Source of the DNA: Actinomycetota bacterium
Lineage (GTDB): Bacteria; Actinomycetota; Acidimicrobiia; Spongiisociales; UBA4744
DNA length: 64,000 nucleotides
NCBI GenBank assembly: GCA_013152275.1
Contig: JAADGS010000028.1
Coordinates: 1-64,000 of the forward strand
Direction: 5' to 3'
The notes under the pieces were generated by a model that saw nothing but the letters and a program-made list of their open reading frames with translations, was not told where the DNA came from and searched no databases. Below are positions 60,190 to 62,002 of the stretch, one piece after another (within the stretch, counting starts at the first letter, position 1; each line of letters begins with the position of its first letter). Both the position numbers and the translations under genes were made by a program.

Positions 60190-60684
60190 TCAACCGAAGA
60201 CGGCTGTGCCGGCGACCGTGAGCAATGACACGACGACACCGGCGATCAGTACCCCGACAGCGATGAGTACGGTCGCTTTGCGACGATCCACACCGAACAC
60301 GAACGCGGCCAGCGCACCGCTCCACGCCCCCGTGATCGGCAAAGGGATGGCGACGAAGGTGATCAAGGCGAGTTCGCGCAGGCGGTCGAAGCGCGCCGTG
60401 TGACGCCGCCGCGTGTGGGCGAAGAGACGGTCGAGGATCCGGTGCAGCCAGCCCCAATGGTCCTCCGCCCATTCGGTCACAGGCCCAAGGAGGACCAGGA
60501 TGAACGGAACGGGAAGGATGTTGCCGATCACCGACCAGACAAACGCCTGAGCGACCGGCATGTCGAACGCCCGCACGGCGAACGGGATCGAGAAGCGAAG
60601 CTCGGAAACCGGCAGCGCCGCCAGGAGAAGCACCGCCAGCGGCTCGGGGAAATGACGAACGAGCGACTCGAGTGCTTGCTGCAT
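60190..60684 (-). CDS. COG2426 small multidrug export-like membrane protein
   Basis: LPVSELR..IP, GNILPVP and FVAIPLPITGAWSG motifs. Confidence 0.85.
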   Translation of the reverse strand: MQQALESLVRHFPEPLAVLLLAALPVSELRFSIPFAVRAFDMPVAQAFVWSVIGNILPVPFILVLLGPVTEWAEDHWGWLHRILDRLFAHTRRRHTARFDRLRELALITFVAIPLPITGAWSGALAAFVFGVDRRKATVLIAVGVLIAGVVVSLLTVAGTAVFG

Positions 60685-60712
60685 GGATGCAGTATTGCGC
60701 CCTGTCGGCCTT

Positions 60713-60742
60713 TTGACACGTTCGCGCTGGGATTACTACGAT
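60713..60742 (+). promoter_or_regulatory. Sigma70-type promoter TTGACA-N18-TACGAT
   Basis: Consensus -35 and a TAnnnT -10, with no convincing + strand CDS downstream. Confidence 0.65.
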
Positions 60743-60748
60743 CTGACT

Positions 60749-60895
60749 GTCGGGTGTCACCCGCACCCGGCACCCCAACAAGCGCATTGGGCTGCGAGCA
60801 TGGACTCCCTGGCGCCTGCTCGATACAACGGCCCATTGTGGCTCTTCGCAAGGAGAGCAACGAGGCTCCGGCTCTACCCCCTTGCCGGAGCCTCG
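60749..60895 (+). ncRNA. Candidate structured small RNA (~150 nt, four stem-loops, C-rich loops)
   Basis: Starts 7 nt after the -10 element. Consecutive hairpins include G-U pairs, a GCAA tetraloop and a terminal 12-bp stem. Confidence 0.6.
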
Positions 60896-60928
60896 CCCTA
60901 TCCGGACCCTGTTCGGATCCAAGGCGAA

Positions 60929-62002
60929 TCAGACCGAGAAGCGGACCACGATGACGTCACCCTCGCGCATCACGTAGTCTTTTCCCTCGACGCGTATGAC
61001 ACCGGCATGCTTGGCGGCGTCCCATCCACCTGCAGCAACGACGTCGGTGATCGAAGCAATCTCCGCTCGGATGAATCCGCGCTCGAGATCAGAGTGGATC
61101 TTGCCCGCGGCTTCCGGTGCTCTTGCTCCCGCTCGCACGGTCCAGGCATGCGACTCCTTGGGCCCGACCGTGTAGAAGGTCAGCAGGCCGAGCGCGCCGT
61201 AGGCGGCGCGCACCATCTCCGCAAGGGCGCCCTCACCCATTCCGAGACCCTCGAAGATCTCCCTCCGATCCTCCGGGTCCATCCGGGCCGCCTCGGCTTC
61301 GATCCGTACGGAAAGGGCGACGACCGTGTCACCCTCTGGTACCAGCGCCGATACGCCTCGGACGAGAGCCTCGGAATCAGGTTCCTCCTCACCGACGTTC
61401 ACGACCCACACCGCCGGGCGCAGCGTCAACGGCGCAAGATCTCTGAACGCTTCGCGGTGGGCATCGGACCATTCTCCGGCGCGCAGTGGCCTCCCCTCTC
61501 CGAGGAACTCCGCCGCCTCGGCGATCGCCGCGGCGGCACGCTTCTTGGTGGCGTCTGCAGAAGCTTCCTTGGCGATACGGGGTCGGCGCCGTTCGAACAC
61601 GTCTGCGTCGGCCATCGTCAGCTCGAGCAGGAGATCCTCGGCCTGCGCAACGGCGTCGGTACCGGATTCATCGGACGGTACGCCCTCGTCGTCGAAGGCC
61701 CGCAACACCATGATGAGCCCCTCCATCTCCCGCAGCCTTCCGAGGAACTGCGATCCGAGACCGCTGCCGTGCGCTCCCATGGCCGGAAGATCGAGAAGTT
61801 CGAGCACGGCGTGCACGATCTTCTTCGAATGCTCGATCTCGGCCGCCGCCTCCAGGGCCGGGTCGGGGATCGAGGCGACCCCGATGTTTGGAGACACCGT
61901 CGAGAACGGGTGGGGCGCGGTCGGTGTATCGAGTCCCGTGAGCGCGTTGAACAGCTCCGTCTTGCCGACGTTCGGAAATCCTACGATGCCGAGGCGTGCC
62001 AT
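60929..62002 (-). CDS. ychF: YchF/Obg-like ATPase
   Basis: GFPNVGKT, LLTFYTVG, AAGKIHSDLERGFIRAE and EGKDYVMREGD motifs. Confidence 0.88.
   Translation of the reverse strand: MARLGIVGFPNVGKTELFNALTGLDTPTAPHPFSTVSPNIGVASIPDPALEAAAEIEHSKKIVHAVLELLDLPAMGAHGSGLGSQFLGRLREMEGLIMVLRAFDDEGVPSDESGTDAVAQAEDLLLELTMADADVFERRRPRIAKEASADATKKRAAAAIAEAAEFLGEGRPLRAGEWSDAHREAFRDLAPLTLRPAVWVVNVGEEEPDSEALVRGVSALVPEGDTVVALSVRIEAEAARMDPEDRREIFEGLGMGEGALAEMVRAAYGALGLLTFYTVGPKESHAWTVRAGARAPEAAGKIHSDLERGFIRAEIASITDVVAAGGWDAAKHAGVIRVEGKDYVMREGDVIVVRFSV

Follow-up and report, generated by a model that had tools for sequence, protein, structure and literature searches.

What does the 244-nt gap between ychF and the neighbouring export gene contain? 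In the window (the whole 64,000-nt stretch of DNA analysed in this work) the gap is bordered by a putative small multi-drug export protein gene (PF06695; 60190..60684, - strand) and by ychF (PF06071, PF01926; 60929..62002, - strand). A preceding sequence-only reading had assigned to it a novel small RNA (sRNA) with its own promoter. The candidate RNA gene housed by the gap is on the + strand, divergent from the export gene and convergent with ychF, and it overlaps neither of them. Its promoter is present as had been claimed: the -35 box TTGACA (60713..60718) and the -10 box TACGAT (60737..60742), separated by 18 nt, form the sole promoter-like site between 60000 and 61600 (expected number 0.1 ± 0.3). 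Both boxes are kept among the homologues (TTGACA, TTGACG or TTGACC and TAGGAT, TATGAT or others, respectively), while the spacer between them changes freely. Upstream promoter-like sites were found in 38 of 70 family hits (defined below) and in 7.9% of control windows. Transcription from this SigA-type promoter presumably starts at ~60748 and proceeds to the end of the last hairpin (P4), which would yield an sRNA of ~150 nt (60748..60900); both ends of this predicted RNA were deduced from the positions of the promoter and of P4. Some 28 nt separate the 3' end from the ychF stop codon (60929). The family model R2 gave 132.8 bits for 60748..60900, a sequence that was included in building R2. The gene is single-copy in the window's genome.

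Some features of the surroundings were also recorded. The export gene appears to be leaderless, with a -10-like hexamer (AATACT; CATACT in many homologues) 6 nt before its ATG (60684-60696, - strand) and back to back with the RNA promoter. At one homologous locus (L033, genome G024) an insertion-sequence-like end, which we take to be of the IS21 type, abuts the RNA promoter and provides its TTGACA; a similar end is carried by contig C21 of the window's genome. The YchF protein encoded at 60929-62002 (- strand) is the genome's only copy and is divergent: it has DLPAM where other YchF proteins have DIAG or DIGG, presumably the DxxG nucleotide-binding motif. Similar variants occur in families f7-f10 and the usual form in f2, f4 and f11. 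The YchF of the window's genome may be a catalytically altered protein.

The four stems predicted earlier were all found, at the same places, in the minimum-energy fold. For the + strand of 60713-60895 the fold had a z-score of -4.78, with 0 of 200 shuffled sequences folding as well, and for the - strand a z-score of -1.83, with 10 of 200. Limiting the + strand to 60748-60900 gave a z-score of -6.60. The 5' hairpin P1 (60748..60772) is variable in sequence and kept in structure, and its loop is often C-rich. The stem stood as first described; the loop, originally given as UCACCCG, is smaller, since further pairing leaves the 5-nt loop CACCC. A hairpin of at least 7 bp follows the -10 box in all 50 homologues selected, with z below -1.5 in 46 of them; the homologues, like the -10 hexamers accepted, had been picked by eye. 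P1 is followed by an unpaired, C/A-rich linker of the CCCCAAC type (60773..60782), which recurs in homologues.

P2 (60783..60840) is a long covarying stem with a bulge on its 3' side (60823-28). Compensatory changes were seen in 11 of its 12 core pairs on alignment A4 (54 sequences), which is model-fitted and hence leans towards the structure, and in 5 of the 12 on the plain MAFFT alignment A2 (25 homologues). Its loop carries the conserved motif CCCUGGC (60807..60813), a candidate seed; CCCTGGY occurs in the 90 nt that precede P4 in 63 of the 70 family hits, compared to 3.6% of control windows. P3 (60841..60858) is optional. The GNRA tetraloop noticed previously is indeed present in the window (GCAA), but the loop is CUCG, UUCG or another sequence elsewhere and the whole hairpin is absent in family f6, therefore it does not represent a conserved contact. 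In two homologues (L069 and L103) P3 is duplicated in tandem.

P4 (60861..60895) has the near-invariant stem GGCUCCGG/CCGGAGCC and the loop UCUACCCCCUU (60873-83), the second candidate seed, in which C5-7UU is conserved in the family. Four of the 12 pairs never vary among 54 sequences and six covary. U-rich tails follow P4 in many homologues and are weak in the window's copy; P4 likely doubles as an intrinsic terminator. Conserved sequence is thus concentrated in the C-rich loops (CCCUGGC in P2, C5-7UU in P4) and in the P4 stem.

The stems covary among homologues, as would be expected of a functional RNA on the earlier proposal. On A2, P2, P3 and P4 were paired in 95-100% of cells, and 36 cells showed double changes compared to 11.4 ± 3.6 after shuffling and at most 11 in slid controls; on A4, 27 of 34 pairs covary. 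The ratio of G-U to A-C cells was 47:3 on A2 and 101:11 on A4. This excess fixes the + strand, in agreement with the strand preference previously read from the window's own G-U pairs. In model R1 the three outer P2 pairs were out of register (17.5% paired) and R2 inherited these columns, therefore the outer P2 helix is omitted from the covariation claims. The unpublished genome G034 supplies a single row per alignment and, of the two f5 matches (see below), one; no claim depends solely on it. A small peptide as the product is unlikely: an ATG was found in 12 of 25 homologues, with lengths spread over all three frames.

BLAST detected homologues in 18 of the 19 genomes from the same family, all with E-values of 8e-21 or lower; the one genome without a hit is 79% complete. 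The exact pattern of the last hairpin retrieved 79 stretches from the genome collection: 54 were labelled Acidimicrobiia/Acidimicrobiaceae, 12 Actinomycetota/Actinomycetes, 5 bacteria and 8 other phyla. Nine were dropped before counting, namely the eight from other phyla and a coding-like one that matched the last hairpin alone, leaving the 70 family hits. Among the order's near-complete genomes, model R2 matched 17 of 41; by family, the matches were 5/5 (f1), 1/1 (f3), 1/5 (f4), 2/2 (f5), 3/3 (f6) and 4/4 (f12), and none was found in the near-complete genomes of f2 and f7-f11, with 72 candidates scored per genome. The RNA was thus found in six of 12 sampled families of one Acidimicrobiia order. 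A shorter pattern occurred in 41 of 109 other genomes of the order, in some of them by chance, and in 9 of 291 genomes outside it; seven of the loci outside the order were inspected and lacked the family features. Taking into account that the matches inside the order are partial and that the inspected outside loci are devoid of these features, the predicted RNA family is patchy within a single order, probably UBA5794 in the GTDB scheme. Viral contigs did not match the family, searches with R1 near ychF in 28 other genomes yielded nothing above background, and a loose two-motif pattern had no more matches than its control.

Two weak R2 matches, L202 (26 bits) and L204 (24 bits), lie beside different genes and were left out of the counts. 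The first (L202:1510-1585, genome G025) is a separate pair of C-loop hairpins immediately preceded by a small Cys-rich ORF. The last hairpin of this pair is similar to P4, and the pair scored 29 bits, below the cut-off, with the CcsR1 model. The second (L204:1500-1600, genome G159 of another order; R2 23.9 bits) is a hairpin resembling a terminator; it has the same UACCCCCUU loop, and a long hairpin stands in front of it.

How does this RNA relate to known ones? Scanning Rfam for 6C, Ms1 and 6S, the check proposed with the original description, returned no family at the cut-off, which upholds the novelty claimed there. The best match was 6C (RF01066), on the P4 hairpin alone, with 24.4 bits (E 5.3) against a cut-off of 47; the first impression that the C-rich loops recall 6C-type sRNAs was right in that 6C is the closest relative. 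The predicted RNA, absent from Rfam at the cut-off, thus represents an uncatalogued sRNA family of 6C-like design. No published description of it appeared among the papers listed in a search of mostly open literature, although motif tables from large comparative screens could bear on its novelty; the word 'Acidimicrobiia' was absent from the papers in part of these listings and from PMC9130861. In the available text of PMC5014011, 6C is defined by two loops with six or more C each. The window's RNA has runs of three C in the P2 loop and five in the P4 loop; in certain homologues one loop or both have C5-7. The order of the elements is like that in 6C, a variable first hairpin followed by C-loop hairpins, but in the window's RNA P3 stands between the latter. 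The C-loop hairpins are adjacent in family f6 and in L029, the shortest homologue, a bare two-hairpin RNA with C5 loops. We do not file the RNA as a member of 6C and infer a 6C-like way of working by analogy.

According to the available text of PMC6486639, mycobacterial 6C represses the panD and dnaB mRNAs through its C-rich loops, which bind G-rich ribosome-binding sites without a chaperone. For the ~150-nt RNA we lean, with some reserve, towards a comparable action in trans, because its C-rich loops are exposed and conserved, its layout is 6C-like and canonical 6C was not found in the window's genome. In this mechanism a housekeeping (SigA-type) promoter would drive the structured RNA, P1 would shield its 5' end and P4 would end the transcript as a terminator. 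The CCCUGGC and CCCCCUU loops would serve as seeds, each forming several G-C pairs and thus pairing chaperone-free, and their pairing at the G-rich ribosome-binding sites of many mRNAs would block translation.

The first alternative is that the RNA is a strongly diverged true orthologue of 6C which moved beside ychF; the mechanism would be unchanged and the ancestry different. This appears somewhat improbable. The shared layout, the shared CCCUGGC, the position of 6C as best Rfam match (on P4) and the reduction of L029 to two hairpins with C5 loops speak for it. So does the failure to find canonical tandem 6C in the window's genome. That result was obtained with a tandem-hairpin scan of our own, which recovered 6 of 6 control loci; it was used because the whole-genome search with the 6C model, which scores part of the candidates and left Corynebacterium below the cut-off, was too insensitive to show absence. 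The scan gave one C5 hit in the window's genome and two in G009 that look like repeats, and one of these hits, when checked, was a repeated element without a 6C match. Against orthology stand the low score of the RNA itself and the absence of a 6C match in 20 homologue loci (9 + 11), where control loci scored 89.5 and 47.9. In the reverse direction R2 recognised just 1 of 6 6C-model loci, with 21.2 bits, which is below unrelated single hairpins; the reciprocal scores are thus at background. In addition, orthology would need a swap of the loop order, and the 8 kb around the homologue (contig C90) of the gene flanking canonical 6C contained no match to 6C or Ms1. In an actinobacterial genome outside the class (L044, G141) we observed a second, sub-threshold 6C-like RNA (38.3 bits) whose -10 box is TAGGAT and whose final hairpin closely resembles P4.

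Returning to the trans-pairing proposal, targets were sought in the window's genome. G-rich start regions are available: AGGGAG precedes 63 and AAGGGG 28 of 2992 predicted starts. When 906 orthologue pairs of the window's genome and G009 were compared, GCCAGGG and AAGGGGG were common to the start regions of none. Joint duplexes, judged by the ten best, did not exceed in strength those obtained with shuffled loops, neither for the P2 loop (-14.7 versus -15.3 ± 0.7 kcal/mol) nor for the P4 loop (-13.7 versus -14.9 ± 0.7 kcal/mol). Because the comparison covered 2.39 Mb of the ~3.2 Mb of G009 and used gene starts from a simple in-house gene finder, targets may have been missed. Seed complements were not clearly avoided (8th to 84th percentile). 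Ranking duplexes in the single genome yielded no credible target, the top one being an insertion-sequence-like end. An S9 peptidase gene (window 49514) contains 13 nt perfectly complementary to the P4 loop, but this site lacks conservation: of 23 orthologues, 2 have it in full and 7 have AAGGGGG, a share close to the frequency with which the GGG codon is used (22%). Where GCCAGGG was conserved between genes, it belonged to tRNA-like sequences or to the reverse strand of the RNA itself, and these occurrences were taken as chance.

The lack of conserved targets in the 906-pair comparison argues against trans pairing. So does the P2 loop of the window's RNA, with three C only, if it is set against 6C-panD pairing, which seemed to require five G-C pairs in the available text of PMC6486639. 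Neither of the two validated 6C targets of mycobacteria fits: the dnaB start region of the window's genome has no G run, and panD was not found there. A mode of action with many targets and weak sites would yield little signal in the 906-pair test, and the same would hold for a protein-binding role.

Such a role is the second alternative: the RNA would act as a scaffold or sponge, with RNA polymerase or a C-tract-binding protein as possible partners, and would present its loops and the P4 stem as protein sites and not as seeds. The near-invariance of the P4 stem exceeds what base pairing needs and hints at protein contact, four pairs being invariant in 54 sequences; the P2 and P4 loops have the pattern CCCU(G/U)(G/A)C in common, and conserved mRNA sites were not found. 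Moreover, 6S and Ms1 were undetected in the window's genome, in searches that scored part of the candidates and, for Ms1, had no positive control at the cut-off. On the other hand, the RNA has no long duplex with a central bubble of the 6S/Ms1 type, neither it nor its homologues match the Ms1 or 6S models, P3 is dispensable, as is P1 in paralogues, and 6C, the closest characterised C-loop RNA, pairs with mRNA. We regard protein binding as unlikely. A bolder version, in which the RNA represents a new class of protein-binding RNAs, would be a long shot. RNA polymerase or a translation factor would then dock on the invariant GGCUCCGG stem and the CCCUGGC loop, the paralogues would tune the complex, and the RNA would take the place of 6S, Ms1 and 6C, all three undetected in this lineage.

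Does the RNA depend on its neighbours? The position of ychF was compared for the 52 hits that have it in range: it lies downstream of the RNA in 37 of them, on the opposite strand in 35 and on the same strand in 2, whereas in the other 15 it is upstream and on the same strand. The two are separated by other genes in genus g4. Two copies are carried by several genomes of f12 and f6, and a second RNA type of ~100 nt, devoid of P1, is found at a locus unrelated to ychF. The three orientations and the paralogues elsewhere show that the predicted RNA is a stand-alone gene, independent of the neighbouring genes, and they exclude a flank-tied terminator, leader or antisense role as its main function. 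An element acting in cis, whether as a leader of the export gene, as an antisense regulator of ychF or as the bidirectional terminator or 3' UTR structure of the latter, is consequently very improbable: P4 does fold on both strands 33 nt from the ychF stop and most homologues are near ychF (52 of 79 pattern hits), but the orientations, the unlinked paralogues, the intervening genes in g4, the RNA's own conserved promoter, the + strand bias of G-U pairs and the lack of overlap with either flanking gene all speak against it. For the same reasons, no overlap and three orientations to ychF, the suggestion in the sequence-only reading that the RNA is antisense to both flanking genes is functionally unsupported. 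At six f4-type loci (L046, L053, L058, L064, L091 and L129) glycine riboswitches were observed at a distance of no more than a few hundred bases from the RNA.

This work adds an uncatalogued, well-covarying sRNA family without an Rfam match for common, uncultured actinobacteria of soil and sediment. If the RNA works like 6C, chaperone-free regulation by C-rich loops reaches beyond Actinomycetes. The natural variants of the present family, which differ in the presence of P1 and P3 and in the number of loop C (C3 to C7) and include pairs of paralogues, would allow a test of which loop features set target choice, a question still debated for 6C.

Among known systems, the 'cuckoo' sRNAs CcsR and ar14 of Alphaproteobacteria (RF02791, RF02344) resemble the RNA in their modular hairpins, exposed C-rich loops and several copies per genome. 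They belong to a different phylum, however, their loop is CCUCCUCCC, a motif absent from the alignment of the RNA family, and their models matched neither the RNA nor its homologues. Ms1 (RF02566) and 6S (RF00013) are likewise stand-alone structured RNA genes, Ms1 being actinobacterial, whereas the present RNA lacks their long duplex and central bubble and has half the length of Ms1. From 6C (RF01066; B11/ncRv13660c, scr3558, cgb_03605) it differs in length (~150 versus 93-109 nt), in its loops (C3 and C5 versus C6 or more), in its long bulged P2, optional extra hairpin and C/A linker, in its location (by ychF/gpsA, 6C by Ms1), in forming paralogues and in the missing G run at dnaB of the window's genome. 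Both occur in Actinomycetota and have a SigA-type promoter, assigned for the present RNA by sequence and conservation. True 6C loci share the layout of a variable 5' hairpin, a C-loop hairpin and a C-loop terminal hairpin, and the last loop of the 6C model also runs into CCCUGGC.
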